Of a stretch of 64,000 bases of DNA, positions 9,787 through 25,697 are shown in pieces. The stretch's first letter is position 1. Every line of letters starts with the position of its first letter. The stretch covers positions 4,864,001 to 4,928,000 of the forward strand of contig CBDCXR010000004.1 of NCBI GenBank assembly GCA_965223845.1, read 5' to 3'. The DNA is from Planctomycetota bacterium. Lineage in GTDB: Bacteria > Planctomycetota > UBA8108 > SXIK01. The position numbers and the translations under genes are program-made. The notes beneath the pieces were generated by a model. That model did not search any database, was not told the DNA's origin, and saw only the letters and a program-made list of their open reading frames with translations.

Positions 9787-12594
9787 ATGCCGTTTTGCCG
9801 ATCGTTTCTCTGTGTATCGATCTTCGCCGGCTCAGCGGTGACCGCGTTCGCCGATGGCGACGTCTCATCCGCCGAACGGGAGTTCGCCCGATCCGTTTGG
9901 CCGGTGCTTCAGGCGAAGTGCGCGGCGTGTCACTTCGCTCCCGAGCGAAAGGGCGAGCTCGATCTTTCGTCGCGCGCGGCTCTGCTCCGCGGCGGCGAGA
10001 GCGGGCGTCCCGCGATCGTTCCCGGGAACGCGAGCGCGAGCCCGCTCTACCAGGCCGTAACGTGGGTCTCGCCCGATCTTCGGATGCCGCCGAAGGAGAA
10101 CGACCGCCTTGCGATCGCAGACGTCGTCGCGGTTCGCGCGTGGATCGACGCGGGAGCGCCGTGGCCTTCGGAGGAGCGGCTCGCCGAGCTCCGGCGTGAG
10201 ATCGAACTCGAGGACAACAGCCGCGTGCGTTGGCGGACGAGCGGCGGACTCGCGAGCGAGTGGACGGATCGTCGTTACCGCGCCGAGGATCTCTGGGCGT
10301 ATCACCCGGTCGCGAAGCCGGAAGTTCCGGACGAACCCGGCGCGCACCATCCCGTCGACGCGTTCGTCGCACGCCGCCTCCGCGCGAGCGAAATCGAGCC
10401 CGCTCCGCGTGCGGATCGACGAGCTCTGATTCGGCGCGTCACCTGGAACCTACTCGGTCTCCCGCCGACGCCAGCCGAGGTCGAGGCGTTCGTTACCGAC
10501 TCGGCCCCCGACCGCGAGGCATTCGCCCGCGTCGTCGACCGACTGCTCGCGAGCCCGCACTACGGGGAGCAAGCGGCGCGCCGCTGGCTCGACGTCACCC
10601 GCTACGCCGACACCGCGGGATTCGCGAACGACTACGAGCGACCGAACGCCTGGCGGTATCGCGACTACGTCGTCCGCGCGTTCAACGAAGACAAGCCCTA
10701 CGACCGGTTCGTTCGCGAACAGATCGCGGGCGACGAGATCGATCCGTCAAATCCCGAGCTCCTCGTCGCGACGGGGTTTCTCCGCATGGGGCCGTGGGAG
10801 CAAACAGGAATGAGCGTCGCAAAGGTGACGCGCCAGCAGTTCCTCGACGATGTGACCGAGAGTGTCGGGCAGGTTTTCCTCTCGCAGACCCTTCAGTGCG
10901 CGCGCTGCCACGACCACAAGTTCGATCCGATCCCGACGCGGGACTACTACGGCATCCAGGCGGTCTTCGCGACGACCCAGTTCGCCGAGCGTCCGGCTCC
11001 GTTTCTCGCGAGCGAGAACCGCGCGCGCTTCGAGAGCGAACGCGGTTACCTGGAAAAGCGCATCGCGCGTTACGAGGAGCAGCAGCGCGAGATTCGCGCG
11101 AAGTCCGCGCGGGCCGAAAAAGAGTGGTACAAGGAACGCGGGCGGGAGTTCGCGCCGCGCGCGGAGCTTCGTCGCCGAGGCGTCCCCGAAGACGAGATTG
11201 CACCGCGCCACGTGGGCCTCGACACGAAGGACTTCGGTCTCGAACGCATTTCGCGCAAGAACCTCACGCGCCACCGCTGGGAGCTCGATCGATTTCGTCC
11301 GCTCGCGCTCGCCGTCTACAACGGTGGAACGCGGTCGTTCAACAACGTCTCCAGTCGACTCTCGATGCCCGACAAGCCTCTAGACGAGGGAACGATCGAG
11401 ACGACGAGCATTCTCGGCGGGGGCGATCTCTTCCGCCCCGGCGAGCCGGTCGAGCCGGGAATCCTCAGCGCGGCGAGCCACGCGGCGAATTCGCCGACGC
11501 CCGCGGCAGCCCCGTTCGCCATTCCGACTTCACCCGATGGGAGACGACTCGCGTGGGCGATGTGGCTGACCGATCCGTCGCATCCCCTCACCGCGAGATC
11601 GATCGTCAATCGAGTCTGGCAGTGGAGCTTCGGTCGCGGACTCGCACCGAACGCGAACAACTTCGGTGCGATGGGACAGAAGCCGAGCCATCCGGAGCTG
11701 CTCGATTGGCTCGCCGCGAAATTCGTCGAAGAGGGCTGGTCGATCAAGCGGCTCCAGCGCTTGATCCTCACATCAGACGCTTATTGTCGAAGCTCGATCG
11801 CGCCGCAAGAAACGACTCTGACGAGCGAAGCACGCAGCGCTGGCGAGAGCGCGTACGCGCTCTTCGCGTCGCGTCGCTTGAGTGCAGAAGAACTTTGCGA
11901 TGCGATGATCGCAGCGAGTGGCGAGCTCAACCGCGAGATCGGCGGAATCCCCGTGCGCCCGGACATCCACCTCGAGGTCGCCCTCCAGCCGCGGCAAATC
12001 ATGGGCACGTACGCGCCTGCGTACCAACCCTCGCCGACACCGGCCGAGCGTAATCGCCGGAGAGTCTACGCGATGCGCATCCGCGGTCTCCGCGATCCGC
12101 TACTCAGCGTGTTCAATCAACCGACGCCGCGGACTTCGTGCGAGCAGCGCGAAACGTCGACCGTGACGCCGCAGGTGTTCGCGCTCTTCAACAGTCGCTA
12201 CGTGCACTCGCGTGCGCTCGCGTTCGCAGCTCGGGTTCGTCGCGAGGCGAACGCCGACGAGGACGCGGTCCGTCGCTCCTTCGCGCTCGCTCTCGGCCGC
12301 GCCCCAAGCGAAGACGAACTCGGCGAATCTATGGCGCACTGGATTGCGATGACCGAGATCCACGAATCCGCTCCGGCGGGCCGAAAACCCGCGAGCGAAG
12401 GCGTTCCGACCGAGGTCGTCCGCGAAGCGGTCGAAGAGATGAACGGTGAGCCGTTCACCTACCGCGAGCGTCTCGAGGTCTACGACGACTACGTCCCCGA
12501 TCTTCAGCCAGGCGATGTCGACCCGAAGACCCGAGCGCTCGCCGAGCTGTGCCTCGTCCTTTTCAATTCGAGCGAATTCCTCTACGTGCCATGA
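9787..12594 (+). CDS. Planctomycete cytochrome c (PSCyt1) + DUF1549 + DUF1553 protein
   Basis: CAACH and CARCHDHK heme motifs; LIRRVTWNLLGLPPT, WRYRDYVV, HPELLDWLA and NSSEFLYVP. Confidence 0.9.
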   Translation: MPFCRSFLCVSIFAGSAVTAFADGDVSSAEREFARSVWPVLQAKCAACHFAPERKGELDLSSRAALLRGGESGRPAIVPGNASASPLYQAVTWVSPDLRMPPKENDRLAIADVVAVRAWIDAGAPWPSEERLAELRREIELEDNSRVRWRTSGGLASEWTDRRYRAEDLWAYHPVAKPEVPDEPGAHHPVDAFVARRLRASEIEPAPRADRRALIRRVTWNLLGLPPTPAEVEAFVTDSAPDREAFARVVDRLLASPHYGEQAARRWLDVTRYADTAGFANDYERPNAWRYRDYVVRAFNEDKPYDRFVREQIAGDEIDPSNPELLVATGFLRMGPWEQTGMSVAKVTRQQFLDDVTESVGQVFLSQTLQCARCHDHKFDPIPTRDYYGIQAVFATTQFAERPAPFLASENRARFESERGYLEKRIARYEEQQREIRAKSARAEKEWYKERGREFAPRAELRRRGVPEDEIAPRHVGLDTKDFGLERISRKNLTRHRWELDRFRPLALAVYNGGTRSFNNVSSRLSMPDKPLDEGTIETTSILGGGDLFRPGEPVEPGILSAASHAANSPTPAAAPFAIPTSPDGRRLAWAMWLTDPSHPLTARSIVNRVWQWSFGRGLAPNANNFGAMGQKPSHPELLDWLAAKFVEEGWSIKRLQRLILTSDAYCRSSIAPQETTLTSEARSAGESAYALFASRRLSAEELCDAMIAASGELNREIGGIPVRPDIHLEVALQPRQIMGTYAPAYQPSPTPAERNRRRVYAMRIRGLRDPLLSVFNQPTPRTSCEQRETSTVTPQVFALFNSRYVHSRALAFAARVRREANADEDAVRRSFALALGRAPSEDELGESMAHWIAMTEIHESAPAGRKPASEGVPTEVVREAVEEMNGEPFTYRERLEVYDDYVPDLQPGDVDPKTRALAELCLVLFNSSEFLYVP

Positions 12595-14063
12595 ACGACT
12601 CAACCCGACGAGCAGAGCGAGCGTGGAGCGCGAATCTTCGCCGCCGAGAGTTTCTCTACGGGACGGCCGCCGGATTCGGCAGCGTCGCACTGACGGCCCT
12701 GCTCGCCGCTGAGGAGGCTCAGAAGGAAACCGGCTCGTCCGCCGCCGGGAAGGCTCCCGAGGGATCGAGCGGAACAACGACGACGAATCCCGGACACGTG
12801 AACGCTCGGGCGAAGTCCTGCATCTTCCTCATGATGGAGGGCGGGCCGAGTCATATCGACACGTTCGACCCGAAGCCGACGCTCCGCGATCTCCACCTCC
12901 GCCGCTTCGTTCGGAAGGGCGAAGCGAAGTCGGCGATGGAGAGCGGAACGCGCTATTTCGTCGAGAGTCCGTTCCGCTTTCGAAAAGCGGGCGAGAGCGG
13001 CGCCGATTTCGCAGAGAATTGGGTGCACCTCGCGAACGTCGCCGACGACATCTGTTTCTATCGCGGATGCCAGGGTGAGTCGGTGAACCATCCGACGGCG
13101 CTCTACCACATGAACACCGGGAACCGCTTCGGCGGCGATCCCGCGATCGGCTCGTGGGTGACGTACGGGCTCGGCTCGGAGAACTCCGATCTTCCGGGGT
13201 TCATCGTTCTTCCCGAGCTCGCCTATCCGCAGGGCGGACCGGCGAACTGGTCGAACGGCTTCCTTCCCGCGGTTTACCAGGGAACGCCGCTGCGACCGGA
13301 AGGATCGCCGATCCTCGATCTCGCACCGCCGGCGGGAGTCACACGCGAGGTGCAGCGACGGAATCTCGATTTCCTCGCGAAGCTGAACGAACGCCATCTC
13401 GCGCGCACTCCCGACCGCGACGACCTCGCGGCGCGGATCGCGAACTACGAGCTGGCGTTCCGCATGCAGCTCCAGGTGCCGGGGATCCTCGACCTCGGCG
13501 CGGAGAGCGAAGCGACGCGAGAGCTCTACGGCGTCGGCGAAGCGTCGACGGACAAGTTCGCCCGGAAATGCCTTCTAGCGCGTCGCCTCATCGAACGGGG
13601 CGTGCGCTTCGTTCAGCTCTACGCGGGGACGTGGGACTCTCACGACTATATCGCGCGGAATCACGCCGCACTCATGCGAGCGGTCGATCGGCCGATCGCG
13701 GCGCTCCTCATCGACCTCAAGCAGCGCGGCCTCCTCGACGACACGCTGGTCGTCTGGTGCGGCGAGTTCGGGCGGAGTCCGGACAACGGCATCCGCGGCG
13801 GGACCGCGTACGGCCGCGACCACAACCCGAAGGCGATGCCGATGTGGTTTGCCGGCGGCGGCGTGAACGCCGGTCACACGATCGGCGCGACGGACGAGAC
13901 GGGCGCCGAAGCGATCGACGTCGTCCGCCCGATCCGCGACGTTCACGTCACGCTGCTCCAACTTCTCGGGCTCGACGACAACCGGCTCACCTACTTCCAC
14001 TCCGGGCGCTACAAGCAGCTCTCGCAGTTCGGCGGGGAGGTGATCGGGGAGCTGTTGGCGTAG
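12591..14063 (+). CDS. DUF1501 family protein (Tat signal)
   Basis: RRREFL; GGPSHIDTFDPK; WDSH; GEFGRSP; GRDHNP. The ATG overlaps the upstream stop (ATGA). Confidence 0.9.
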   Translation: MNDSTRRAERAWSANLRRREFLYGTAAGFGSVALTALLAAEEAQKETGSSAAGKAPEGSSGTTTTNPGHVNARAKSCIFLMMEGGPSHIDTFDPKPTLRDLHLRRFVRKGEAKSAMESGTRYFVESPFRFRKAGESGADFAENWVHLANVADDICFYRGCQGESVNHPTALYHMNTGNRFGGDPAIGSWVTYGLGSENSDLPGFIVLPELAYPQGGPANWSNGFLPAVYQGTPLRPEGSPILDLAPPAGVTREVQRRNLDFLAKLNERHLARTPDRDDLAARIANYELAFRMQLQVPGILDLGAESEATRELYGVGEASTDKFARKCLLARRLIERGVRFVQLYAGTWDSHDYIARNHAALMRAVDRPIAALLIDLKQRGLLDDTLVVWCGEFGRSPDNGIRGGTAYGRDHNPKAMPMWFAGGGVNAGHTIGATDETGAEAIDVVRPIRDVHVTLLQLLGLDDNRLTYFHSGRYKQLSQFGGEVIGELLA

Positions 14064-14091
14064 GCGGGACCTCGAGTCGTCCCGGAATCCG

Positions 14092-17000
14092 TCACCGCTC
14101 GAGCGTCCGCAAGAGCTCGATCCGATCGAACTGAGCGAGCCCCCCCATCGCCGTCGGTGCGATCCCCGTCAGCGTGAACGATCCGTTGTCCTTCCACAGG
14201 TCGACGGTGACGACCGTCCAGTCGTTCGGCGATTCTTCCGCGACGCGCTTCGCCTCCCACTTCGTCGTGTTCTTCCCGCTGTAGTAGCGACGCTGCGGAC
14301 TTTCCGCCGCCGGCCAGCGACCGCTCGCCGCGAGCTCGACCATGACGCCGTCACCCGTCGGATTCTTCCACGCGAGGCGAAGGTAGCGGTACTCGCCCGG
14401 CTCGGGTCTCTCCGCGATCGAGTAACTCCAGTTGCGAATCTGCGCGGAGTAGCGCTGGGGCGGCGTCACGGCGAGAGAACGCGTTCCCGATGGCGCTTCG
14501 CCCGCGACGATCTTCGCACGACCACCACCGTCTTTCAGAAGCGACGGAAACTCGTCCTCCTCGTCGAAGAGGACGACCGAGCCGGGAAGCTCGTCGCCGA
14601 AGGCCGAGCGGAGATGCGCGATGAGGTCGGCGATGTCCTTCGGACCGAGGAGATCGCGGAAGTTATCCGGCATGAGCGAGATCGGCGAAACGCTCATCGA
14701 TTCGATGTTCCGCCGGAGAAAGGACTCCTCGACCCCGTCCTTGAGACGAATCGTAACGCTCGTCGCCGACTCGGACGCGAGGACGCCGCTCGCGACCCGC
14801 CCGTCCTCCGTGGTCACCGTGTACGCGGCGTAACCGTCGGTGATCTGGCGACTCGGCGCGAGGATGTCCGCGAGTAGCGTTAGATCCGCCCGCTCTCGCT
14901 CCGAGGCGATGTCTGGTCCGACCGCGTGCCCTTCTTCGCCCACGCGGTGGCAGGGTAGGCAGTGCTTGCGAAAATGCGCCGCGCCGCGCTCGGCATCGCG
15001 TTCGCCTTCGAGCGCATTCACGTAGCGCGAATAGACATCGTCGGCGATTTCACCGGTCTTTTCGGTGCGTTCGAAAACACGGCGCGCTCGAGCGCGCAAC
15101 TTTTTGTCGGTGTGCTCGACGAGCTGCACGCGGCGAAACTCCCGCAGCGCAATCGGCGGCACCGCGTCGTTCTCGAGCGCGTCGAGCAGCGCAGGGAGAC
15201 GGTTCGCTCGCGCGAAAATCGCCTCGAGCGCCGCCTCGGCGACCTGCGGCGAGTACGACTCGAAGCGCCGAACAAGCACGGAACCGACGGCGTCGTCGTC
15301 TGCGGTCGAAAGCGCGGCGATCGCGGCGAGCTGAAGTGCGACGGGCACGCGCGGCTCGAGGAGCTTCTCGCACGCATCGCGCTTGGTCGCGAACGGCGCG
15401 TGAGCGAGGAGCCTCGCCGATGCGAGCCGTTCGTCGAGGCTGCGCTCGGAGTCGAGCGCCGTTCTCTCCGCGTGAGAGAAGGTCTCGCTCAGCTCCTTGG
15501 AGTCTCTCAAGTCGAGCGTGCCGACAACCTCGAACGCCGCCTCGCGAACATCGGGGGAAACCGACTTGAGTAGCGAACTGAGGGCACTCATCGCGCTCTT
15601 CTGCGTGAAGAGATCTCTCGCCCCACGCTTCAATCCCTCGGTAAGCCCGCGCAGCCCTTCGAGTTGAATAGATCTCTTCGCCGGGTCGCGGATGCGCTCG
15701 AATAGATTCAGAGCCGCTTCGACCTCTCCGCGCGTTCGACGGGCACCGATCGTCTGCGCGAGAAGCGAAACGACTCGCACGCACTCGCCCGGATCGTCGC
15801 GCTCGATCAGCCGCCGGAGAAGCGGAAGGGCGACGTGGGTCGACGAGCTGGCGATCGCAGCGGCCATCCAATTCTCGTTCCCGTGCTTCGCGGCGAGCTC
15901 GGCGAGCGCCCGGGACGCACGCGCGTCCCGCGATTCGCCGAGCGTGAGCGCGAGCTGGAGGCGGACACTCGGATCAGAATCGCGAACGAGCTCGAGCGCG
16001 CGAGCGAGAATCTCCGGATCGTCGCCGATTCGTTCGTTCGCGAGTCGGAGGGCGTACCGGCGGACGCCCCAGTGGGCATCGCGGAGCGCACTCACGACGT
16101 CGCTCGACTCGAGGGACCTGAGCCCGGCAAGCGTGGCGAGAGCTGCGAGCCGTGCCTGCGGCGTTTCGCCTCGACTCGCTCGTTCGGCGAGCGGTGCGCG
16201 TGCGCCGAGAGATCGCCGCTCGATGAGAAGTCGTCGTGCGGCTTCCCGCCACCAAACGTTTGAGTCACCGGTCAGCTGGACGAGCGCGTCGTCGCTCGCG
16301 GAACCGAGCTTCGGCGTCCTAGCTGGGGGAGCATCGCGGTGTCGAACGCGCCAGATCCTTCCCTTCGTGTTCCCCTCCGCAAGTCCGTACTGTTGCTGCA
16401 GGAACCGCGGGATCGCCGAGTAGTCTTCGATGATTTCGCGGTACATATCGACGACGTAGAGCCCGCCGTCCGGCCCGATCGCGAGGCTGTTCGGCCGAAA
16501 CCACTTCTCGCTCGAGGCGAGGAACTCGCGGTCTCGCTCATCGGGCGCGCGCCGCACTCGGTAGCCGGCTCCGTCGCGTTCGAGAATCGAGCGGTGGACG
16601 ATGTTGTTCTGCGGCTCACACGCGAAGTGATTGCCGAGATACTCGGAGGGAAAACCGTCGGCGCTGTAGATGAGCGGACTGCACGCCGACGTGAAAAGGC
16701 CGCTCGGCGTCGCTTCGTGACTGCCGTAGAAGCGAACCCAATTCGGATCCGCGCCCCGCTTTGCTCGCCAGGGATGCGGCGCGCTGATCGGGAAGATGCG
16801 CGAGTAGTTCGACGCGCCGGCGTCGCTTTTCGGTGACGGGACGTAGGGGTTGCGAAGAAGCGATCGATACGGAAGCGGCGCAGCGAAGTACGCGTGATTG
16901 CTTCCCGTGATGAGGAATCGGTCGCCAAAGTCGGTGAACCCGATGCCGAAGGTTCCGCTCCCGGCGGTTACCGGTTCGAGCGCACTTCCGTCGGGCCGGA

Positions 17001-17721
17001 TGCGGAAGTCGCTGCTCCCGAGCGAGACGGGCGTCCCAAGCTTGGGCCCTCGGATGGTGCCGCCGTGACCGCGCGCGATGTAAATCCAATTGTCGAGCCC
17101 CCAACGCGGAGAGTTGATTCCGCGTTCGAGCGGACCGAGACCAAAGCCGGAGAACATCGTCTCGCGCACCTCGGCGACATCGTCACCGTCGCGATCGGCG
17201 AGGAAGACGATGTCCGGCGCGCAAGTCACGATGAGTCCGCCGCGGGCCGGAAGAATCCCGTAGCAGGGCGGGAGTCGATCGGCCCAAACGTGCGCTCGGT
17301 CCATGCGGCCGTCGCCGTCGGTGTCCTCGAGTCGCTTCACCGTCCCATAGGTATCTTTCGCCGCGGCCTTCTTCGCTTCGGGCGGAGCCTGAATCCGCCG
17401 TACGGTGCGGTCGAGCTCTCCCGTCTTATTGAGCTCCTCGACATCGAGATGCCCCTCGAGGTTGTAACCGTGGAGCTCGCACACGAAGAGTCGACCGTTT
17501 TCGTCCCACGCAACGCCCGTCGGGTCCGCGATGAGGGGCTCGCTAGCGACGAGATCGATCTCGAAGCCGTCCTTGAGCCGGAAGAACTCTCGGCTCTTCT
17601 CGGGCGACGAAGGCTGAGGAGCGTCCGCTGCCCGTTCGATCTGTGCGGGGAGACGATGCCAGACTCCGGACACGATCGTCACGGCGATCGCGGCCAAGAC
17701 GAGAAAGATCCGCTCAGTCAT
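14092..17721 (-). CDS. PVC-type heme-binding CxxCH protein (membrane-bound-dehydrogenase-like propeller, HEAT-like repeats, cytochrome c domain, extra C-terminal domain)
   Basis: LVASEPLIADP, LEDTDGDGRMD, GPDGGLYVVDMYR, helical repeats, CLPCH...VGPDI and SLMPD. Start MTERIFL at 17721 is followed by a signal peptide. Confidence 0.88.
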   Translation of the reverse strand: MTERIFLVLAAIAVTIVSGVWHRLPAQIERAADAPQPSSPEKSREFFRLKDGFEIDLVASEPLIADPTGVAWDENGRLFVCELHGYNLEGHLDVEELNKTGELDRTVRRIQAPPEAKKAAAKDTYGTVKRLEDTDGDGRMDRAHVWADRLPPCYGILPARGGLIVTCAPDIVFLADRDGDDVAEVRETMFSGFGLGPLERGINSPRWGLDNWIYIARGHGGTIRGPKLGTPVSLGSSDFRIRPDGSALEPVTAGSGTFGIGFTDFGDRFLITGSNHAYFAAPLPYRSLLRNPYVPSPKSDAGASNYSRIFPISAPHPWRAKRGADPNWVRFYGSHEATPSGLFTSACSPLIYSADGFPSEYLGNHFACEPQNNIVHRSILERDGAGYRVRRAPDERDREFLASSEKWFRPNSLAIGPDGGLYVVDMYREIIEDYSAIPRFLQQQYGLAEGNTKGRIWRVRHRDAPPARTPKLGSASDDALVQLTGDSNVWWREAARRLLIERRSLGARAPLAERASRGETPQARLAALATLAGLRSLESSDVVSALRDAHWGVRRYALRLANERIGDDPEILARALELVRDSDPSVRLQLALTLGESRDARASRALAELAAKHGNENWMAAAIASSSTHVALPLLRRLIERDDPGECVRVVSLLAQTIGARRTRGEVEAALNLFERIRDPAKRSIQLEGLRGLTEGLKRGARDLFTQKSAMSALSSLLKSVSPDVREAAFEVVGTLDLRDSKELSETFSHAERTALDSERSLDERLASARLLAHAPFATKRDACEKLLEPRVPVALQLAAIAALSTADDDAVGSVLVRRFESYSPQVAEAALEAIFARANRLPALLDALENDAVPPIALREFRRVQLVEHTDKKLRARARRVFERTEKTGEIADDVYSRYVNALEGERDAERGAAHFRKHCLPCHRVGEEGHAVGPDIASERERADLTLLADILAPSRQITDGYAAYTVTTEDGRVASGVLASESATSVTIRLKDGVEESFLRRNIESMSVSPISLMPDNFRDLLGPKDIADLIAHLRSAFGDELPGSVVLFDEEDEFPSLLKDGGGRAKIVAGEAPSGTRSLAVTPPQRYSAQIRNWSYSIAERPEPGEYRYLRLAWKNPTGDGVMVELAASGRWPAAESPQRRYYSGKNTTKWEAKRVAEESPNDWTVVTVDLWKDNGSFTLTGIAPTAMGGLAQFDRIELLRTLER
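16766..17660. repeat. 895-bp direct repeat, copy 1 (within the intact heme-protein gene)
   Basis: Matches 19778-20672 (offset 3012). Differences seen at 16927/19939 and 17043/20055. Confidence 0.95.
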
Positions 17722-17979
17722 GGAGAAAACCGATCGAAGTTTGCGGCGAGCGAAATCGCCGTTTCTGGCCCCAACACGGATCGGGTCGCGACGCCGCCCT
17801 CGGCAATCCCTCTCCCAAAAATCTCCGATATGGGAAGCGAGAAACACCGCACACAATCGATCCAGAAAAACGGCATTTATCTGTAGGCAACCATGCGTAC
17901 ACTACCTCTAAGGGGAGGTCGCAAATTCCGGCGAGCGTCGAGAAACACGCTCTCAAGATCGATGAAGGAGGCTTTAATT

Positions 17980-18861
17980 ATGTCCTTACTTCACGGATTC
18001 TATGAAAAGCTATCGAAAACAACCACTGGTGGCGAGCGAGCAGAAAAGCTCATCTACAGCAAGAAGTTCTGCGAGCACTGGAACGCCAAAAAACAAGTAG
18101 CCGCAGCGGCTGCCCAACTGATGCAAAAGCTTGAACTCACAGCCTTGACAGTGCCGGAAGGAAGTAGCGCATCAGCAATTTATGAAGAATACGTAACCAA
18201 ACGAAATGATTTACGGCCTCTTACTATTTACACTAACAATTGCGACGTTCTGCTTCACCGGACACTCGGAGAGAGCGAATCGTACGTCGAGACCTTAGAT
18301 ATTCGTATGGCTCCGGGAAAGGTCCGCGCGCGCTCCGGAGCGATTCTTGGCCAACAAACAGATGATTGGTTCTCCAAGAACATTCACGGACTATGCTTGC
18401 TCCCAGTTTCTGCATTCCACTGGGATCAGGGCCCCTGCGCTAGAGACCCCAAAGCGCGAAATATCAAGAGGCGCATTCTTGAACTCGCAGAGAATCTCCT
18501 TCTCGTGCTCGACAGTCAGAAAATGCGGAAGAACATCCTTCCGTTTCTCACACACGTAGCAGATCGAAGCGAGTGGAAAAACTGGATCAACGGGCGGTAC
18601 AACCGAAACATGTGGGTCGTGACAACGCTTAGTCCTCGAATCCATGAGCACTGGGAGTCAAGTGACGACCCGCTATGCGCAATTCGTCAATTGACGCTCG
18701 ATGAAGACGAGAAGAAAGAGCTAGCCTGCCTTGAGGAGATATGGGCGATCCTGACAAATCGGTCTCTATTGGGCAAGAAGAACGGTAAGAACAGGGCAAA
18801 GTCCAAGCGCGCTCATGATCCCACGGATCGACTAATAATCGCAGGTCCGCATTCCGCTTAA
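17980..18861 (+). CDS. Stand-alone DeoR/GlpR C-terminal sensor-like domain protein, no N-terminal HTH
   Basis: AAGGAGG SD 8 nt before the ATG at 17980. The motif order KKQVAAAAAQL / EGSSASAI / LTIYTNN / GKVR..SGAILG / IKRRILELAENLLLVLDSQK follows the DeoRC pattern. Visibly more AT-rich than the flanks. Confidence 0.65.
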   Translation: MSLLHGFYEKLSKTTTGGERAEKLIYSKKFCEHWNAKKQVAAAAAQLMQKLELTALTVPEGSSASAIYEEYVTKRNDLRPLTIYTNNCDVLLHRTLGESESYVETLDIRMAPGKVRARSGAILGQQTDDWFSKNIHGLCLLPVSAFHWDQGPCARDPKARNIKRRILELAENLLLVLDSQKMRKNILPFLTHVADRSEWKNWINGRYNRNMWVVTTLSPRIHEHWESSDDPLCAIRQLTLDEDEKKELACLEEIWAILTNRSLLGKKNGKNRAKSKRAHDPTDRLIIAGPHSA

Positions 18862-19040
18862 TCAATTCGCTACGATCCCTCGATGCCAACAAGACGACAC
18901 GGAGAGAGCGTCCCTCGCGGAGTCGTCGGCAGACACCGAGCGTGGAAACTTGGGCGAAAGTGACCGAAGGAATCCAGCCCGAACGACGACTCTCATTGAC
19001 CTCGATCCTTGCGGCTATCCCGCATCGATTAGGCGATCTC

Positions 19041-19079
19041 TTTTCGCGGGCGCTCGAACACAACGAGCGCCCGCGAAAA
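19041..19079. terminator. Intrinsic terminator, T tract on the minus strand
   Basis: Perfect 16-bp inverted repeat TTTTCGCGGGCGCTCG / CGAGCGCCCGCGAAAA with a 7-nt loop, 5 nt past the stop at 19085, between convergent genes. Confidence 0.75.
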
Positions 19080-19084
19080 TGCGA

Positions 19085-19240
19085 TTAGTCCTCCTTCCGC
19101 AAGTGACGCGAGAGGAATCGATTGGTTCGACGTACAAATGCATCCCGAGCGGCTTGACGAGGCAGTCGCCGCCGTAGGGCGCGCCTCCTCGTCCGACCGC
19201 GACGCAGCAGAGCCCCCCGTCTTCGCGCATCACGACACAT
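19085..19240 (-). CDS. Small Arg-rich protein (51 aa), unknown function
   Basis: AGGAGG 9 nt before the ATG; MCRDARRRGALLRRGRTRRRALRRRLPRQAARDAFVRRTNRFLSRHLRKED; the terminator hairpin follows the stop directly. Confidence 0.5.
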   Translation of the reverse strand: MCRDARRRGALLRRGRTRRRALRRRLPRQAARDAFVRRTNRFLSRHLRKED

Positions 19241-19302
19241 AGGCGTAGCCCTCCTGAGCACCTCAAAACTCTTGGAAAGACACAGCCGAACAAGCCGACC
19301 GA

Positions 19303-19515
19303 TCAATCGTCTTCGAACATGTCCGCGTCTTCGAACGCAGAAGGGTCGTGCCCGAAGACTCGTCGGAGGCCTGCGACCTCTTCCTTGAGCTGGGACATTA
19401 CGTCGAGAAGATCCCGGACGCTGCCGGAACTCACCTCAGCTGGTCGCGCACCTCGAGCGATCTCGTCGAGCATCCACGCAGGTACGGCCGAACCGGATCG
19501 TTGGGGTCGCTTCAT
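19303..19515 (-). CDS. Small protein (70 aa) with an amphipathic helix and acidic tail, unknown function
   Basis: GGAGGAG 7 nt before the ATG at 19515; MKRPQRSGSAVPAWMLDEIARG...VRDLLDVMSQLKEEVAGLRRVFGHDPSAFEDADMFEDD. Confidence 0.6.
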   Translation of the reverse strand: MKRPQRSGSAVPAWMLDEIARGARPAEVSSGSVRDLLDVMSQLKEEVAGLRRVFGHDPSAFEDADMFEDD

Positions 19516-19725
19516 AGCTCTACTCCTCCGAACTCGACGCTCCGAGGAACGGGCCGCCGTGGCGGCCGAAAGGGTCGCACGCGTGCACGAGTTCCTCGGA
19601 CCATTCCGAGCAAACCCGGCTGCGCGCAACGGAGGAGGAAGATTAGCCGGTGTGTTGCGCGATAACCGGCGAGACTGTCGCGATAAGCGACGACGGCGAG
19701 CGCCAACCTTCCTCAGTGGGAAGAG

Positions 19726-19753
19726 AGTTTACGCAAACATCTCCGATTGTCAA
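19726..19753 (-). promoter_or_regulatory. Sigma70-type promoter for the small-ORF operon
   Basis: Minus strand TTGACA (19753-19748), 16-nt spacer, TAAACT (19731-19726). Confidence 0.6.
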
Positions 19754-20733
19754 GACTCTTTCGACTCACGAGCCGAACGCCAGGGATGCGGCGCGCTGAT
19801 CGGGAAGATGCGCGAGTAGTTCGACGCGCCGGCGTCGCTTTTCGGTGACGGGACGTAGGGGTTGCGAAGAAGCGATCGATACGGAAGCGGCGCAGCGAAG
19901 TACGCGTGATTGCTTCCCGTGATGAGGAATCGGTCGCCGAAGTCGGTGAACCCGATGCCGAAGGTTCCGCTCCCGGCGGTTACCGGTTCGAGCGCACTTC
20001 CGTCGGGCCGGATGCGGAAGTCGCTGCTCCCGAGCGAGACGGGCGTCCCAAGCTCGGGCCCTCGGATGGTGCCGCCGTGACCGCGCGCGATGTAAATCCA
20101 ATTGTCGAGCCCCCAACGCGGAGAGTTGATTCCGCGTTCGAGCGGACCGAGACCAAAGCCGGAGAACATCGTCTCGCGCACCTCGGCGACATCGTCACCG
20201 TCGCGATCGGCGAGGAAGACGATGTCCGGCGCGCAAGTCACGATGAGTCCGCCGCGGGCCGGAAGAATCCCGTAGCAGGGCGGGAGTCGATCGGCCCAAA
20301 CGTGCGCTCGGTCCATGCGGCCGTCGCCGTCGGTGTCCTCGAGTCGCTTCACCGTCCCATAGGTATCTTTCGCCGCGGCCTTCTTCGCTTCGGGCGGAGC
20401 CTGAATCCGCCGTACGGTGCGGTCGAGCTCTCCCGTCTTATTGAGCTCCTCGACATCGAGATGCCCCTCGAGGTTGTAACCGTGGAGCTCGCACACGAAG
20501 AGTCGACCGTTTTCGTCCCACGCAACGCCCGTCGGGTCCGCGATGAGGGGCTCGCTAGCGACGAGATCGATCTCGAAGCCGTCCTTGAGCCGGAAGAACT
20601 CTCGGCTCTTCTCGGGCGACGAAGGCTGAGGAGCGTCCGCTGCCCGTTCGATCTGTGCGGGGAGACGATGCCCCGGGCCGAACGCGATCGCAGCCGCGAT
20701 TGCGACCGAGGCGAAACAACGGCGAGTCGTCAT
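19750..20733 (-). pseudogene. Truncated 5' duplicate of the 14092-17721 gene with a different signal peptide (327 codons)
   Basis: MTTRRCFASVAIAAAIAFGPG, then sequence matching the intact gene up to ...APHPWR, then SARESKES-stop. Lacks the HEAT-like and heme domains. Confidence 0.85.
19778..20672. repeat. 895-bp direct repeat, copy 2
   Basis: Near-identical to 16766-17660. Confidence 0.95.
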
Positions 20734-21032
20734 GGAGAAAATCGATCCGTTCCAGGGCTGAATCGAGGACCCACGGCTCGGACGAACCCGTCCGCGAGTC
20801 GCGAACAGCGCCAGTGGCACCTGCGACCGGAGATTAAGGATCGACGCCGGGCGCGCGTAGACGAGTCGCCCGTCGCTTTCTCCGGCGCCGCAGAGTTCGT
20901 CCACCTCCTTGAAGGCGGTGACTGGGTCGCCTCTAGGCTTCGAGTGCGACCGAATGCATCGTAGCACGCGCCGGATCGACGAACACGCGAGACGAACGAG
21001 CCGCACGGGTTCGGAAGAGACCACTCGAATCG

Positions 21033-22106
21033 TCAACCAGCCGGTCGACGTCCTGCGACGAGCCTGATTCCGCACCCGACGACGATGATCACCAGAAGCG
21101 TGAGCGCCCCCGGGGTCAACGCGGGAACTCGGCGATCTGCCGCTTCCGCCGGCACGAGCGCGTCGTGGGCGTCCGTCGTACTGAAACCCTGGCTCGGAGC
21201 GCCGCCCGGAATGTGGATGCGGATGCCGACGACCGCCGCGCCGATTCCGTGGCGCGGGTTGGGCATCGGGGCGCGCTCCTCCCATTCGTCCTTCGCGGGG
21301 TCGTACACCTCGACTTCGGAGAAGATGCCGCGGGCGTTCTCCGGATTGCCCTCCCCGCCGAACACGAACATCTTTCCCGCGAACGCGGCTGCGGCGATGC
21401 CGGCTCGCTTTGTCGGAAGCGGAGCGAGCTCCGTCCACTCTCCCGTCGTGGGATTGAAACTCTCTAGCGCGCCGCCGGAGAGCGCACCCGCACGCCCTCC
21501 CGCGGCGTAGATGATTCCGCCGATCGCGACGGCCGCCAGGTGATTGCGAGCCGTCGGCATCTCGGTGAGCACCTCCCAGGCATCGACCGCAGGATCGTAC
21601 ACTTCGAGATCCGCGAAGCTCAGCGCTCCGCTCTGTCCTCCGGCGGCGTAGATCTTGCCGCCCGCAGTAGCAACCCCCATGGCGCCACGCGCGCGATTCA
21701 GCGAAGCGACCGGCTCCCACTCTCCGGACTCAGGCGAAAACGCGAACACCGTATCCACACCGCGGAAGGTGCTGTTCAGTCCCCCGATCGCGTACACCCG
21801 CCCCGCCGCCGACGCGGCCCCGACGTGATGGAGCCGAACGTCGTCGGGGAGCGGCGCGATCACTTCCCATTCGTTCGTTCGGACGCTGAAACGTTCGACC
21901 GCACCTACCGCAGCTCGGTTTTCCGCGATTCCGCCGATCACGTAGATTTCGCCATCGAGCTCGGCGACGCCGACTTCCTGGCGCGGCTCCGGGAGGGGCG
22001 GCAGATCGACCCAGTCGTCGGTCGTTCCCCGGCTCGGTACTCCGATCCAGCCGATCAAGAGTGCTGCGCAAAACCCGACACGAGCAGACGTAGGTTCATC
22101 GAGCAT
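21033..22106 (-). CDS. Secreted Kelch-repeat protein with an IPTL-CTERM-like C-terminal sorting segment
   Basis: Six Kelch repeats (IYVIGG, VYAIGG, IYAAGG twice, MFVFGG, IHIPGG). C-terminus VPALTPGALTLLVIIVVGCGIRLVAGRR. Confidence 0.85.
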   Translation of the reverse strand: MLDEPTSARVGFCAALLIGWIGVPSRGTTDDWVDLPPLPEPRQEVGVAELDGEIYVIGGIAENRAAVGAVERFSVRTNEWEVIAPLPDDVRLHHVGAASAAGRVYAIGGLNSTFRGVDTVFAFSPESGEWEPVASLNRARGAMGVATAGGKIYAAGGQSGALSFADLEVYDPAVDAWEVLTEMPTARNHLAAVAIGGIIYAAGGRAGALSGGALESFNPTTGEWTELAPLPTKRAGIAAAAFAGKMFVFGGEGNPENARGIFSEVEVYDPAKDEWEERAPMPNPRHGIGAAVVGIRIHIPGGAPSQGFSTTDAHDALVPAEAADRRVPALTPGALTLLVIIVVGCGIRLVAGRRPAG

Positions 22107-22716
22107 CGGAATCCCGCCTTCTCTAGTCGCAGATTGTCCTCGAGCGCTCGGGGAGACGAATCGAAGCGCGCGCGGGAAGCGGCCGCATCGTTCGACTCAC
22201 GTCGACTCTCCGGCCGCGGATTCGCCTGGCTCGACTTTCAACGCCTGAGTTTCGCGAGTCAAGTTTCGTTCGGACGGAGATCGCGAAGAATTCATCCGCA
22301 GCCCGGTACGTTCGGCCGCCATGAACGCAAACATCATTCGCGCGGCTTACTTCGATCGTTCGGAGAGCAGGTGCGAAGGAACTAGGACCATGAGCTGATC
22401 GATGCCGACGCGACGGCGTGGTGCGCTGAGATCAACCCCGTTCTCGAGTCGGTCGAGGCCGCGACCGATGGCGAGAGAGTTCGGACCGGGCGTCCGGGAC
22501 TCGAGAAGCGGGTCTCCCAGGTGTCGATCGGTACACAACCCGTTTCACCCGTCCGCGGCCTGCTCTTACCGCGTAAGATCGACGTCGCGCTGCGACTGCG
22601 AGCGCGCGTCACGTGGAGGAGTTCATGTGCCGCGACGGGAAAGGGTCGTCATCAGCGGTGACTTGAGCGTCACGAAATTCCTAACGCCAACGGGTTCAAA
22701 AGGGTTCGAGGTCGCA

Positions 22717-23331
22717 ATGGCAGCCACGCGGGTACAGGCCATATTCGCAAGCGAGGCGCCGGTTGGATTGGTATTTTGTCGCGGGCCGAGTGACTGGTGG
22801 CAGCTCTTTCTGTGGAAGACTCGTCGCGACGAATTCGAAGCGGGGGCATGGTTTCGTGGGGTGCTTCGACCTCAACTCTGTGACTTGTCCTCCGACGGCA
22901 AACTCTTCGTTTACGCAGCGACCAAATTCCGGCGAAGTAAGGGGGAGCCGCCACGAAGCTGGACGGCCGTAAGCCGACCGCCGTGGATCAGCCCTCTCGT
23001 CGCGTGGGAGAACTGCGGATCGTGGACGGGAGGAGGAAAGTTCACTTCGAATCGTCGACTGCTCGTCGACGCCGAAGGTCCCGTCCAGCGAGGTTCCGTC
23101 GGCTGCCTCGAGGTCGAGTACGGCGACGCCCCGATGCATCAGCCGCGAAATCCCGCCGCCGCGACCGAAGACGGTGCGGACTGGATCAGCCGGGATCCCA
23201 GTGACTCGATCGTGTTCTCTCGCGGCGGCGCTCTCTACCGCCGGAGCTCGATCGGGGTAAGACTCATCCGCGAGTTCCCGGAGAAGATCCCCGACCCCAG
23301 GCCCCCTCCAAGTCATGCGACTCACTGGTAG
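22717..23331 (+). CDS. Hypothetical protein
   Basis: Protein-like Trp-rich sequence from MAATRVQAIFAS (RGPSDWW, CDLSSDGKLFVY, WTAVSRPPW). Confidence 0.6.
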   Translation: MAATRVQAIFASEAPVGLVFCRGPSDWWQLFLWKTRRDEFEAGAWFRGVLRPQLCDLSSDGKLFVYAATKFRRSKGEPPRSWTAVSRPPWISPLVAWENCGSWTGGGKFTSNRRLLVDAEGPVQRGSVGCLEVEYGDAPMHQPRNPAAATEDGADWISRDPSDSIVFSRGGALYRRSSIGVRLIREFPEKIPDPRPPPSHATHW

Positions 23332-23673
23332 CACCGCCGAAACATCATCTTGTCCCCCATCGTTTGTCGGTGGGCTGAGACCGCAGAGAGAGACTCGTAC
23401 GAGATTCGATGGACGCGCGGTTCTCACCCGGATCGATCCGGCCTGAGGGACTCTACTCATTTTCTGAAGGCCCGGCTGAGACGCCCCTGTTTCCCCATGA
23501 GCACCCGAGCCTGACGCTCCAATTTCCGCGCGGCAACCGGTGCCAGCCGGCACAATGATGAGACCGAAGTCTCGCTCTCATACCCGAAGCCATCGGAGTC
23601 CAGGCCCCGCTTTTCTTCTGACCTGAGAGGAGTGAGTGCGTCTTCCGGTGGTTAGCTCGAACTCAGCCACCTG

Positions 23674-24198
23674 ATGTTTCTCTGCCCCACCTGCGGCACC
23701 GAGTTGCGGCGAACGACCTACGAATCCGTGCCGCTGTTCGCCTGCGAGCGCTGCCGCGGTCATCTCATCTGCGAAGCCCGCCTCGACTCGATCCGCGAGG
23801 AGCGACGGTACGACGAAGCCGAGCTTCGGCGGCAGGCCGTGCACGAGTCGTCCGCGGAGCGGCAGAATCCGCTCCAGTGTCCCGCGTGCTGCTCGCAAAT
23901 GGACCGCCAGCACGTCTTGGACGTGATCGAGATCGATGTCTGCCTCGCGTGCGATCGGGTGTGGCTCGACGCGGGCGAAATCGCCCTTCTCCAGCTCGCC
24001 CACGAAGCATCGACCGGCGCACAGAGCGAGCGAGAAGCTCGCGCTCGCTTCGCGCGGCTCGTCCCGGACCCGAACCGCCGCGCGCGGTTAGAGGAGAACG
24101 TGTCGCGTTCCGAACCATCGGGCGTTCTCGACGCCGTCGGGGAGGTCTCATCGACGGTCGTGTCGCTCGCCCTCGAATTCCTGTTCGCGCACTGGTAA
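23674..24198 (+). CDS. Double zinc-ribbon (zf-TFIIB-like) protein
   Basis: CPTC...CERC and CPAC...IDVCLACDRVWLDAGEI. Confidence 0.75.
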   Translation: MFLCPTCGTELRRTTYESVPLFACERCRGHLICEARLDSIREERRYDEAELRRQAVHESSAERQNPLQCPACCSQMDRQHVLDVIEIDVCLACDRVWLDAGEIALLQLAHEASTGAQSEREARARFARLVPDPNRRARLEENVSRSEPSGVLDAVGEVSSTVVSLALEFLFAHW

Positions 24199-24302
24199 AT
24201 CGAGGATCCTCCGCGACGGCCACTATCGATCGTCGCTCGCGCCACGGAATCGCGCGATTCGATCGTCCGACGCAAGCGTCGCGGAGGATCTTCACAGAGT
24301 CT

Positions 24303-25697
24303 CTACCCGAGCCTTCCGGGAGCACGATCCGCCTGAGCGGCTTCGCTCGCGCCGAGGATCGCACGATTGAGCGCCCCGCCACCGACGACGAGCTCTTCGA
24401 TCGCGAGCTCGACATCCCTCTCGATCAGCTCAGTGGACTCAGCGTCTCTCTCGAGCTGGTACTGGGCGGCACGGCGCATCAGCTCCTTAATCAACGCTCC
24501 ACTCACGTTCTCGACTCGCGTCGCGGTGTGGCGAACGAGCTCGTCCGAGACGGAGAGACCCGAGGCGTACATGCGAATCAGCCTTGCTCGGCCTTCTTCG
24601 TCCGGGTACGGAAACTCGATGGCCTGATCGATCCGCCCCGGCCTCGACGCGAGCGCTCGCTCGAGAACCTCGGGACGATTGGTGGTCAGGATGAAGAGGA
24701 CGTCGGAATCGGGCTTGAGTCCGTCCATTTCGTTGAGGAGCTGGTGGAGAACCGACACCGAATTTCTATCTCGTCTCCACGCACGATCCTCGCCGACGAG
24801 GTCGACGTCCTCGATGACGACGACGCTCGGCCGGAGCAGCCGAGCCAGCGTCATGTACTCGGGAAGACGTCCCATCTCGTCGGCCGCGACGAGGAACGTC
24901 GTGTAACCCTCGAGCACCGATGCGAGATAGCGAACCGTGTGCGTCTTCCCGGTGCCGGGAGGTCCGTAGAAGAGGAGACCCTTCTTCGTCGACAGACGTC
25001 GCTCGGCGAGTTGACGCCGCGTCGCAGCGAACCGAACGACGTTCCGCTCGAGCAGCTCGAGCGTCCGGCGAGGGAAGACCACTTCGTCGCGCGCGACGGG
25101 AGGCAGCCGATGGACCGAAACACCGGTCGAAGTGCCTCCGTACGGCGTTCTAGGCTCGAGCGAGAGAACTTTCCCGCGATAGGAATCCGATCTCGCGACG
25201 GCACGTCCGAGGCGCCGGAAGAACTCCCGGGTGATTCGCACCCCCGCTTCGCTATTCGGTGCGACAAGCTGGAATTTCACCGGTCCGCACTGATGATCGC
25301 GCTTGGAAAGAAGAAGCAGACCGAACGACACGCCGTCGTGCTCAAGGAGCCACAGCCCTCGCTCGAGGCAGCGAACCGGCTGGTCCTCCCCGATGTCGAT
25401 CTCTTCGTATTCGGGAGGGATCACGTACACCCGTTCGTCATCTGGGCCGAAAGCGAGAAGACTCGAGAACGTCACCTCGCGGTGGTCCCACTGGGAGCGA
25501 AACGCCGTGAAGTACGACACCTCGTACTCCGTCTCGACCACACGATCGATAAAACGCTGAAGATCCGCACGAATGCGTCGAGGATAGCTCCTCTCGGTGA
25601 TGGCGAGATCGTTCGGCGTATTCACACCGAAGTAGCCGAGGACGAAGGAAGACAGGGTGCTCCGAGCTTCTTGAGTGTTCTGAGATTCTGTAGTCAT
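24303..25697 (-). CDS. Classical-clade AAA+ ATPase with an uncharacterised N-terminal domain
   Basis: Walker A GPPGTGKT, Walker B VVVIEDVD, LLNEMDG and second region of homology TTNRPEVLERALASRPGRID. Confidence 0.9.
   Translation of the reverse strand: MTTESQNTQEARSTLSSFVLGYFGVNTPNDLAITERSYPRRIRADLQRFIDRVVETEYEVSYFTAFRSQWDHREVTFSSLLAFGPDDERVYVIPPEYEEIDIGEDQPVRCLERGLWLLEHDGVSFGLLLLSKRDHQCGPVKFQLVAPNSEAGVRITREFFRRLGRAVARSDSYRGKVLSLEPRTPYGGTSTGVSVHRLPPVARDEVVFPRRTLELLERNVVRFAATRRQLAERRLSTKKGLLFYGPPGTGKTHTVRYLASVLEGYTTFLVAADEMGRLPEYMTLARLLRPSVVVIEDVDLVGEDRAWRRDRNSVSVLHQLLNEMDGLKPDSDVLFILTTNRPEVLERALASRPGRIDQAIEFPYPDEEGRARLIRMYASGLSVSDELVRHTATRVENVSGALIKELMRRAAQYQLERDAESTELIERDVELAIEELVVGGGALNRAILGASEAAQADRAPGRLG

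Follow-up and report, generated by a model that had tools for sequence, protein, structure and literature searches.

Campbell-type integration by a single crossover is an insertion-duplication, as it is known from suicide-plasmid mutagenesis. The locus described here, part of a 64,000-nucleotide stretch of a Planctomycetota genome that we refer to as the window, shares several of its hallmarks: a direct duplication flanks an insert, the upstream copy is truncated at its 3' end, the downstream copy carries what would be the incoming 5' end, and recombination between the repeats would restore a single gene. It differs in the absence of any vector, replicon, marker, plasmid or phage gene, and in the presence of a diverged 5' end on an identical body, which goes beyond the consequences of integrating a simple circle. 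A literature search for Campbell-type integration with direct repeats and excision returned no match. A related logic is found in phage 21 and the element e14, whose integrase acts on a short core site in icd and which carry a replacement 3' end for the gene they interrupt. There, as would be the case at our locus, the target gene is kept intact by an incoming, diverged homologous end, and the native end that it displaces is left at the opposite border, whereas the present case involves no integrase, an 895-bp repeat and the replacement of a 5' end.

Homology-facilitated illegitimate recombination usually results in an insertion accompanied by a deletion, with an anchor that is not duplicated. 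Its combination of a homologous anchor and an illegitimate join (PMC3240628) resembles the borders found here at 17660/17661 and 19777/19778, respectively. Transformation-triggered merodiploidy by interchromatid integration was described by Johnston et al. 2013, in whose work a fragment of some 3 kb, partly repeated in the chromosome, pairs alternatively with two sister chromosomes to yield a tandem duplication; the duplications described there span 100-900 kb with borders at IS remnants, in contrast to 0.9 kb around foreign DNA in our case (PMC3784515). Finally, Tsuru and Kobayashi 2008 (PMC2568036) describe the lpl genes of Staphylococcus aureus as a cluster of tandem paralogues that recombine at a conserved central region. 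Adjacent homologues, a similar internal region serving as recombination site and variable 5' ends that move together with the upstream spacer are features with a likeness in our locus, which contains only two copies, one of them truncated.

The locus provides a clean, read-supported case in which part of a gene is duplicated and linked to foreign DNA, a combination by which an exported enzyme can receive another promoter and signal peptide with its mature protein left untouched. It looks like an ordinary, static recombination scar, and no new kind of mechanism is opened by it.

Architecture of the locus

The features of the locus are listed in Table 1. Since both genes are located on the minus strand, the truncated copy is the upstream one. 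The direct repeats, termed X_B and X_A, are offset by 3012 bp, a period composed of one repeat, the 5' end and the insert, and they are found exactly twice in the 7.93-Mb genome. As claimed in a preliminary description of the sequence, they differ at only two of 895 positions, with one substitution (16927/19939) being synonymous (Phe) and the other (17043/20055) exchanging Lys and Glu. Both are confined to the 278 bp closest to the truncated end (chance P ~0.1), and identity is unbroken up to the last base before the 19777/19778 junction, with a match of 22/100 on the other side. On the 5' side of the repeat, 35 of 60 positions match in an ungapped comparison of 17661-17720 with 20673-20732 (P = 3.7e-7 given the background match rate of 0.271 in the window), in agreement with the earlier count made by hand. 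The return of identity at the start codon, which had equally been noticed, corresponds to a patch where 17717-17735 and 20729-20747 agree at 18 of 19 positions and past which the match is at background (34/100). The motif of this start region occurs at two sites only in the 7.93-Mb genome, both at this locus. The two N-terminal peptides quoted earlier and the end of the upstream copy at ...APHPWR were also correctly read.

Table 1. Features of the locus, with positions numbered within the window.
Feature	Position	Strand	Properties
Intact gene, copy B, PVC-type heme-binding CxxCH protein	14092-17721	-	1209 aa; DUF7133 propeller-like domain, HEAT repeats, cytochrome c domain
X_B, repeat copy of intact gene	16766-17660	-	codons 22-319: signal-peptide end and first two thirds of propeller; 893/895
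Start codon and n-/h-regions of signal peptide B	17661-17721	-	MTERIFLVLAAIAVTIVSGVW; 35/60 nt vs copy A; 17-residue uncharged run
Conserved start-region patch, copy B	17717-17735	-	14 nt upstream of ATG plus 5 nt; 18/19 vs 20729-20747
Insert	17736-19777	.	2042 bp, unique in genome; GC 0.554, lowest 0.16% of same-length genome windows
Orphan gene, DeoR C-terminal sensor-like domain	17980-18861 (ORF open from 17893)	+	293 aa; Pfam DeoRC 2.5e-12; divergent from intact heme gene
Perfect 16-bp GC-rich hairpin between two convergent insert genes	19041-19079	.	folding -36.8 / -36.9 kcal/mol, z -6.5 / -4.9
Small orphan ORF	19303-19629	-	108 aa (TTG start) or 71 aa (ATG start near 19515); C-terminus acidic, GC3 0.63
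Promoter-like site TTGACA-16-TAAACT	19726-19753	-	10/12, consensus match only; just inside insert, faces small ORF
Truncated copy A	19750-20733	-	327 aa; signal peptide A and codons 22-319, then 8 unrelated codons and stop
X_A, repeat copy of truncated gene	19778-20672	-	893/895; 895-bp short-read contig, ~2x depth, 4/4 runs
Start codon and n-/h-regions of signal peptide A	20673-20733	-	MTTRRCFASVAIAAAIAFGPG; translation, hydropathy
Native-looking upstream region A and Kelch-repeat gene (21033-22106)	20734-22106	-	composition, family match

The intact gene, whose start at 17721 agrees with the N-termini of orthologues, matches Pfam families DUF7133 (2.6e-108; 363 bits over profile positions 1-385 of 385), HEAT_2 and Cytochrom_C. 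Its N-terminal domain is recognized by NCBIfam TIGR02604 (235.2 bits against a cut-off of 122.2) and its C-terminal heme domain by TIGR02603 (116.4 bits against 68.15, residues 909-1039), and a heme motif CLPCH is visible in the translation. The N-terminal domain is a six-bladed propeller like that of PQQ sugar dehydrogenases, as reflected in a structure model (pTM 0.83) with 2ism as best match in the PDB (E 7.9e-10, TM 0.46/0.64). In the truncated copy, which covers profile positions 1-249 of DUF7133 only, the last propeller blades, the HEAT repeats and the heme domain with its motif are absent. The cut follows the invariant residues P315, P317, W318 and R319 inside the propeller, and about 45 more invariant positions, extending to 458, are lost together with model strands 365-461. 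The resulting 327-aa upstream ORF is a fragment that would be labelled as a PVC-type heme-binding protein, which calls for caution in annotation.

The DNA between the copies is of distinct character. Its DeoRC-like gene has a GC content of 0.504 compared to 0.65 in the genome (lowest 0.02% of genome windows) and a GC3 of 0.55. The DeoRC match extends over residues 62-215 of the 322-aa ORF (47.5 bits) and no HTH family was detected in the gene, which thus lacks the combination of HTH and DeoRC found in DeoR regulators; NCBIfam equivalogs of such regulators score 26-32 bits against cut-offs of 260-351. Among 5.8 billion proteins, the search for relatives of this protein returned itself only. The best match in a protein atlas, to a DeoRC cluster (0.78), is below the level that counts, and a weak match to phrog_14147 in PHROGs (E 0.0014) merely mirrors the DeoRC domain. 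The small ORF matches no family and none of 37 candidates proved to be a relative. The hairpin at 19041-19079 is only terminator-like and was rejected as intrinsic terminator, with its U-run located 5' of the stem on both strands. Inverted repeats at the ends of this single-copy insert, a target-site duplication and a transposase family were not found, nor was an integrase or recombinase family in the insert or its flanks. The insert further contains no replicon, plasmid or phage gene and no PADLOC defence family, no RNA family was detected, the region 10000-30000 contains no tRNA, and a comparison with the 15-kb contig C1 of 48% GC gave no match. By its composition and orphan content, the insert looks like recently acquired foreign DNA.

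Origin of the arrangement

Of the seven residues that signal peptides A and B have in common, Met excluded, five are encoded by different codons (hand count), as compared to one synonymous change in the 298 codons of X. Judged from this codon choice, the two signal peptides are old homologues. A foreign source of signal peptide B, whose total GC is 0.59, was considered and dropped, since its GC3 of 17/20 (hand count) is compatible with the host value of 0.78 (P = 0.33) and at odds with the 0.55 of the neighbouring foreign gene (P = 0.005); its codon use is by this measure host-like. No source of either 5' end was found in a paralogue of the same genome.

We tentatively favour, with a confidence somewhat short of even, an origin from old neighbouring paralogues that were homogenised by gene conversion before the upstream copy was truncated by foreign DNA. 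In this scenario, two adjacent genes would each have possessed their own start region and signal peptide. Gene conversion would have held their bodies identical, with the tract ending in the signal peptide, where homology decays. A foreign block would then have replaced the sequence from codon 320 of the upstream copy up to a point 14 nt before the downstream start codon. As a result, signal peptide A and the native region upstream of it would now drive just a propeller fragment that is presumably unable to fold, and the working gene would use signal peptide B together with whatever promoter resides in the low-GC divergent spacer. The mosaic of identity expected from gene conversion is found at the locus, in form of the near-perfect repeat, its sharp border, the partial match of the adjoining 60 bp and the different codons underlying shared residues. 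This possibility, which the preliminary description had mentioned as an alternative, accounts for the mosaic at least as well as integration of a circle. The same genome contains another tandem two-gene paralogue pair of mosaic character (100% over 1087 bp, 94% over 1837 bp and 72% over 163 bp). The position of both substitutions near the truncated end fits a weaker conversion at a border of homology, but would also arise by chance with the mentioned probability of about 0.1.

Comparison with relatives speaks in part against this history. In the collections searched, we found no close relatives. A single species represents the genus in the genome set, where the best orthologue shows 49% identity over its full length, and a metagenome scan found at best, among 63 loci, 63% over the first 318 aa. 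The three genomes of the same family that were searched contain no orthologue, with best matches at 35-37% identity or weaker, and a second gene copy was found beside the orthologue at none of 14 metagenome loci with at least 7 kb of upstream sequence, thus leaving an old tandem paralogy without outside support. Neither a second full-length copy nor a 3' remnant of copy A has been located, the best match to its lost part within the insert being 39 aa long (E 0.23) and not collinear. The start-region patch is absent upstream of orthologues at 39 loci, which points to patchy exchange between close copies rather than to a family-wide element. In tblastn searches of the same 39 loci, the Kelch, DeoRC-like and small proteins gave no match of at least 80 aa. 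The described history also takes three events, whereas a single insertion-duplication would account in one for the recent look of both the duplication and the unameliorated foreign DNA.

We consider such a one-step insertion-duplication to be the second most likely origin, though clearly below even odds. A donor carrying the foreign block, upstream region B and signal peptide B would have entered the host gene by recombination, as a circle through an 'ends-in' single crossover of the Campbell type or by bridging two sister chromosomes. Homology would have been used at the start of X and an illegitimate join formed after codon 319, with duplication of the host X on both sides; the two substitutions would have arisen later or have come from a slightly different donor, and the product would be static. 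The topology is exactly as predicted, with direct repeats flanking the insert and a 3'-truncated upstream copy. Both the duplication, with a divergence of 0.2%, and the foreign DNA, with a GC content of 0.50, look recent, as expected for one event, and the identity that persists to the last base before the 19777/19778 junction is what a fresh duplication border would show. Upstream region B, with its GC content of 0.556 (1.5th percentile), is compositionally atypical, in contrast to the 299 bp of region A (0.645, 43rd percentile). Tandem duplications produced by interchromatid integration of an approximately 3-kb fragment are, moreover, documented in Streptococcus pneumoniae (PMC3784515).

The demands on the donor weigh against this proposal. 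Its signal peptide would have to be anciently diverged in its codons (5/7) and yet host-like in GC3 (17/20), and it would also have to supply the start patch that distant orthologues lack, which together would define it as a fairly close high-GC relative with a low-GC island of its own. Neither a donor relative nor a circle, plasmid or phage was found in the collections searched, and the insert carries no replicon, integrase or transposon ends. The single crossover of a circle had been inferred in the preliminary description from the order signal peptide A-X, insert, signal peptide B-X-rest. That layout and its topology stand, but no recombinase, replicon, plasmid or phage gene and no transposon ends are present in the insert. 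Such an origin would also leave unexplained how an X that is 99.8% identical comes to be joined to anciently diverged signal peptides.

Short-read contigs and the coexistence of both copies

The described arrangement would be void if it resulted from a wrong path in the assembly, with a chromosome in which Kelch gene, signal peptide A and X are simply followed by the remainder of the gene, and with insert, signal peptide B and X residing in another strain or on a 3012-bp circle of their own. We have investigated this in short-read contigs from four runs (2 samples of 1 study) built with 31-letter words. In all four runs, the contigs break exactly at the borders of the repeat and all four junctions are bridged. 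The pieces comprise a contig of 5.9 kb ending at 16795, the 895-bp repeat, a contig of 2177 bp (17631-19807) crossing both insert junctions, including the one between truncated X and insert, and a contig starting at 20643. The depths of rest, insert, upstream region A and repeat are 3.4, 4.6, 7.08 and 8.92 in X1, 12.3, 9.67, 9.72 and 18.1 in X2, 21.5, 25.6, 23 and 47.1 in X3, and 4.3, 4.94, 6.6 and 9.35 in X4. The repeat is thus covered about twice as deeply as each of its three flanks in all runs. The letters of the collapsed repeat contig correspond to copy A in X1 and X3, to copy B in X2 and to a mixture in X4, illustrating that both variants are present in the reads. With bridged junctions and a doubled repeat depth, the two copies seem to belong to a single genome.

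This result is at odds with the two-haplotype assembly that the preliminary description had envisaged, since a mixture of two strains predicts a depth of the rest equal to that of X, where about half was observed in all four runs, and since the junction between truncated X and insert is bridged in each. No piece spans the whole stretch. Contigs built from 31-letter words cannot phase an 895-bp repeat, and a graph with two entries and two exits fits both resolutions; they do not separate the integrated form from an unduplicated chromosome in a cell that also contains one free copy of a 3012-bp circle. A circle of this kind, devoid of a replicon, would have to be maintained in both samples at a number roughly matching that of the chromosome (insert/flank depth ~0.9-1.15). 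The assembly, in addition, consists of 4 contigs, of which the one with the window measures 7.87 Mb; this contiguity suggests, without proving it, the use of long reads, for which 0.9 kb would be easy to span. Taken together, we regard an error of assembly as highly improbable. The repeat would break or misjoin assemblies of short reads in general.

Possible deletion between the repeats and export of the product

Recombination by RecA at the 895-bp repeats would join the full gene to signal peptide A, and a 3012-bp circle would be lost. With a RecA gene present and direct repeats of this length, excision would be expected at some low rate. The preliminary description had seen in such excision a possible recombinase-free switch. 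As a programmed switch, excision and re-integration would toggle promoter and signal peptide between A, possibly Tat-like with its RR pair, and B, and would alter regulation or the route of export. The product of the deletion would be in frame, and for the export route the proposal could refer to the presence of TatC and to signal peptide A, which contains the motif T-R-R-x-F and whose core is less hydrophobic than that of B (KD maximum of 2.43 compared to 3.08). Against it, the circle, once excised, lacks any function for replication or integration, and deletion of a non-replicating circle is a one-way process and not a programmed switch. In all four runs the insert is covered about as deeply as both of its flanks and a sizeable subpopulation with excision is not apparent, and three reported 'joints' for excised or circular forms have sides of just 21-24 letters and were taken as stray matches. 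We have found just one such structure in the genome. A switch thus finds no support and appears to us very unlikely. Equally improbable is the view of the 3012-bp unit as a minimal recombinase-free integrating module, in which a 5' gene part with its own promoter and signal peptide would serve as bait and RecA provide entry and exit, although, if true, the regulation of a periplasmic heme dehydrogenase and its export signal would be rewired, in populations that hold both states.

The attachment of c-type heme requires Sec export of the unfolded protein, which argues against an alternative export route for this enzyme. The RR pair, to which the preliminary description had pointed in signal peptide A, is not recognized as a Tat signal: neither N-terminus matched the Tat-signal profiles (TIGR01409 and Pfam Tat-signal families) at E values up to 10. 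The protein chosen as control, a DUF1501 protein encoded nearby, is recognized by PF10399 (E 0.003) and by TIGR01409 (E 0.024, below its cut-off). A gene for a DUF1501 protein is found at 5 of the 39 orthologous loci in tblastn matches of at least 80 aa. The signal peptides of orthologues commonly contain RR or KR in their n-region.

Layout of the repeat and the two gene copies

The two copies of the 895-bp direct repeat at this locus are offset by 3012 bp and are identical at 893 positions, with one synonymous difference (16927/19939) and one Lys/Glu difference (17043/20055). The adjoining 60 bp align without gaps at 35/60 matches (P = 3.7e-7 at a background match rate of 0.271), 18 of 19 bp agree around the start codon, and the outer flanks of the repeat pair are at background identity (34/100 on one side, 22/100 on the other), values that bear out the repeat figures of the preliminary description. 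The repeat is present twice in the genome and the start-region motif occurs only twice in the 7.93 Mb searched, both times at this locus, where the Kelch gene and both gene copies share the minus strand.

Features of the locus and its surroundings (window coordinates)
Feature	Coordinates	Strand	Remark
Kelch gene	21033-22106	minus	first in reading order, followed by upstream region A
Copy A: signal peptide A and repeat	19750-20733	minus	ends after codon 319
Repeat in copy A	19778-20672
Insert	19777-17736		between copy A and start region B
Intact copy: start region and signal peptide B, repeat, rest of gene	17721-14092	minus
Repeat in intact copy	16766-17660
DeoRC-like gene, 293 aa	in insert		DeoR C-terminal sensor-like domain only, no HTH
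Small acidic ORF	in insert		no relatives found in search
Perfect 16-bp hairpin	between DeoRC-like gene and small ORF
Promoter-like site	just inside insert junction		candidate, resembles consensus
Short-read piece, ~5.9 kb	end at 16795		4/4 runs
Short-read piece, 895 bp	the repeat		4/4 runs
Short-read piece, 2177 bp	17631-19807		4/4 runs; spans signal peptide B/repeat and truncated repeat/insert borders
Short-read piece	start at 20643		4/4 runs
DUF1501 gene	12549-14063	plus	convergent with heme gene
Two ORFs of no family	within 22400-25700
Protein with two TFIIB-type zinc ribbons	23674-24198
AAA ATPase, 464 aa	24303-25697	minus

In the product of the intact gene (1209 aa), DUF7133/TIGR02604 occurs together with HEAT repeats and a cytochrome c domain carrying CxxCH (TIGR02603), a combination that identifies it as a PVC-type heme-binding protein. 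A structure model of residues 1-470, built from an alignment with 21 orthologues of 56-63% identity (mean pLDDT 76.6, pTM 0.83), has 2ism as its top structural match (E 7.9e-10, TM 0.46/0.64); the next matches are soluble glucose dehydrogenase and HHIP. The modelled N-terminal domain is similar to the six-bladed propellers seen in PQQ-dependent sugar dehydrogenases. Copy A is cut directly after the invariant residues P315, P317, W318 and R319. Missing from it are the heme domain and every HEAT repeat, the strands at 365-461 and some 45 other invariant positions, from which we infer that it is a non-functional fragment.

In both signal peptides the core, uncharged over 16 or 17 residues, precedes the common HRLPAQ, after which the mature start aligns with orthologues, and both look like ordinary signal peptides. 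By hand counts over 20 codons, they have seven residues in common (Met excluded), five of which are encoded by different codons, and the repeat carries, also by hand count, one synonymous change in 298 codons; judged from their sequences, the two 5' ends are homologous yet anciently diverged. The RR pair of signal peptide A, to which the preliminary description had drawn attention, does not behave as a Tat signal in profile searches, where no match was obtained at E up to 10 but the neighbouring DUF1501 protein, used as control, does match. The n-regions of orthologues often contain RR or KR, and c-type heme attachment requires Sec export. Since TatC is encoded in the genome, a weak case for Tat export of signal peptide A persists. 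The DUF1501 protein itself starts with a twin-arginine-type RRREFL and weakly matches TIGR01409 and PF10399; of 39 related loci, 5 have a DUF1501 gene near the heme-protein orthologue.

Origin of the duplication and its insert

The insert comprises 2042 bp, is single-copy in the genome and has a GC content of 0.554, within the lowest 0.16% of equal-length genome windows. Its DeoRC-like gene is at 0.50 (lowest 0.02%), with a GC3 of 0.55 versus 0.76-0.81 in neighbouring genes. Searches among 5.8 billion proteins recovered only the protein itself, those of plasmids and phages recovered no match, and its identity as DeoR regulator was rejected, the sensor-like domain being without HTH. Neither a site-specific element, as recombinase and tRNA are absent, nor a transposon, as transposase, terminal inverted repeats and target duplication are absent, describes the locus, and searches of the insert for a replicon or for traces of the lost portion of copy A, and of the locus for known RNA families, were equally negative. 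A 15,005-bp contig of the same genome (GC 0.481 versus 0.653 in the chromosome), which may be a plasmid, phage or mis-binned piece, has no sequence in common with the insert.

The genome set contains one species of this genus. Three genomes of the same family were searched; they yielded no member of the orthologue group of the heme protein, only distant paralogues (at best 35-37% identity or weaker). Orthologues closest to the protein within the set, full-length at 45-52% identity, belong to another family of the same order, a patchy distribution that might reflect transfer or loss. A metagenome scan yielded 63 loci, the best with 63% identity across the initial 318 aa. Among tblastn matches of at least 80 aa, none of 39 orthologous loci showed the Kelch gene, the DeoRC-like gene or the small ORF as a neighbour, and a second gene copy was found in none of the 14 with at least 7 kb upstream.

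Every proposed history has to accommodate both a body that is 99.8% identical and 5' ends that diverged anciently. The one we favour, at slightly less than even chances, assumes paralogues whose bodies would have been homogenized by gene conversion before truncation of the upstream copy. It is favoured by the host-like codon use of signal peptide B (GC3 17/20 by hand count; P = 0.005 if the GC3 of the adjoining foreign gene applied) and by the start patch, which occurs in 0 of 39 orthologous loci and thus, not being family-wide, suggests patchy exchange between copies within one genome. A like mosaic is found in another tandem pair of this genome, outside the window (G000:C4:7276500-7283500), where successive segments of 1087, 1837 and 163 bp of a duplicated two-gene unit are 100%, 94% and 72% identical, likely by gene conversion between tandem paralogues. 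The proximity of both repeat substitutions to the homology border (chance P ~0.1) points weakly in the same direction.

A one-step insertion-duplication by a circle, by 'ends-in' recombination or by sister-chromosome bridging, for which PMC3784515 offers a precedent, is somewhat less probable. It would be more economical than the paralogue history and would account for the recent appearance of the duplication as well as of the foreign DNA, which is unameliorated, and for the odd composition of region B (1.5th percentile versus 43rd for region A). It requires a fairly close high-GC donor, none of which has been seen so far. Campbell-type insertion-duplications and element-borne replacement gene ends are among the closest known kinds of structure. 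The locus behaves like the former or like tandem paralogue clusters recombining at a conserved core (described in PMC2568036), and also close are transformation-triggered interchromatid duplication (PMC3784515) and homology-facilitated illegitimate recombination (PMC3240628). The locus adds one more example to a familiar type of structural scar, and its significance is modest.

Read depth and the proposed switch

Four public short-read runs (X1-X4; two samples, one study), in which 98% of the words sampled from the stretch are present, may include the source data of the assembly and therefore test the path of the assembler rather than independent biology. In all four, the contigs end precisely 30 letters inward of the borders of the repeat.

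Contig mean depth in the four runs
Run	Rest of intact gene	Insert	Upstream region A	Repeat
X1	3.4	4.6	7.08	8.92
X2	12.3	9.67	9.72	18.1
X3	21.5	25.6	23	47.1
X4	4.3	4.94	6.6	9.35

A mixture of two strains with one 5' end each, previously considered as an assembly artefact, would place the rest of the gene at the depth of the repeat, but it was measured at about half in all four runs, which argues against this alternative. Since the letters of the collapsed repeat contig are those of copy A in X1 and X3, of copy B in X2 and mixed in X4, both variants exist in the reads.

With RecA encoded in the genome and 0.9-kb direct repeats recombining at low rate, cells in which signal peptide A is fused, in frame, to the full gene are expected to arise. 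This change would be a one-way loss because the by-product circle is non-replicating. A regulated device toggling the 5' ends, the recombinase-free switch initially proposed, is thus very improbable, also as the depth of the insert matches that of its flanks in 4/4 runs, the structure is the only one of its kind genome-wide and the locus bears no mark of such a device. An unduplicated chromosome accompanied by a free 3012-bp circle in roughly one copy per cell, although compatible with the short-read contigs, is similarly hard to credit because the unit is without replicon and the window sits within a 7.87-Mb contig of an assembly of four.

Beyond the Kelch gene, a stretch of slightly lower GC (22400-25700; 0.58-0.64) may be a small island. 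Direct-repeat runs of at least 300 bp number only 10 in the 7.87-Mb contig C4; among these are tandem arrays at C4:5033501, 4051813, 5507451 and 1831835, spaced at 136, 282, 720 and 1248 bp, respectively.
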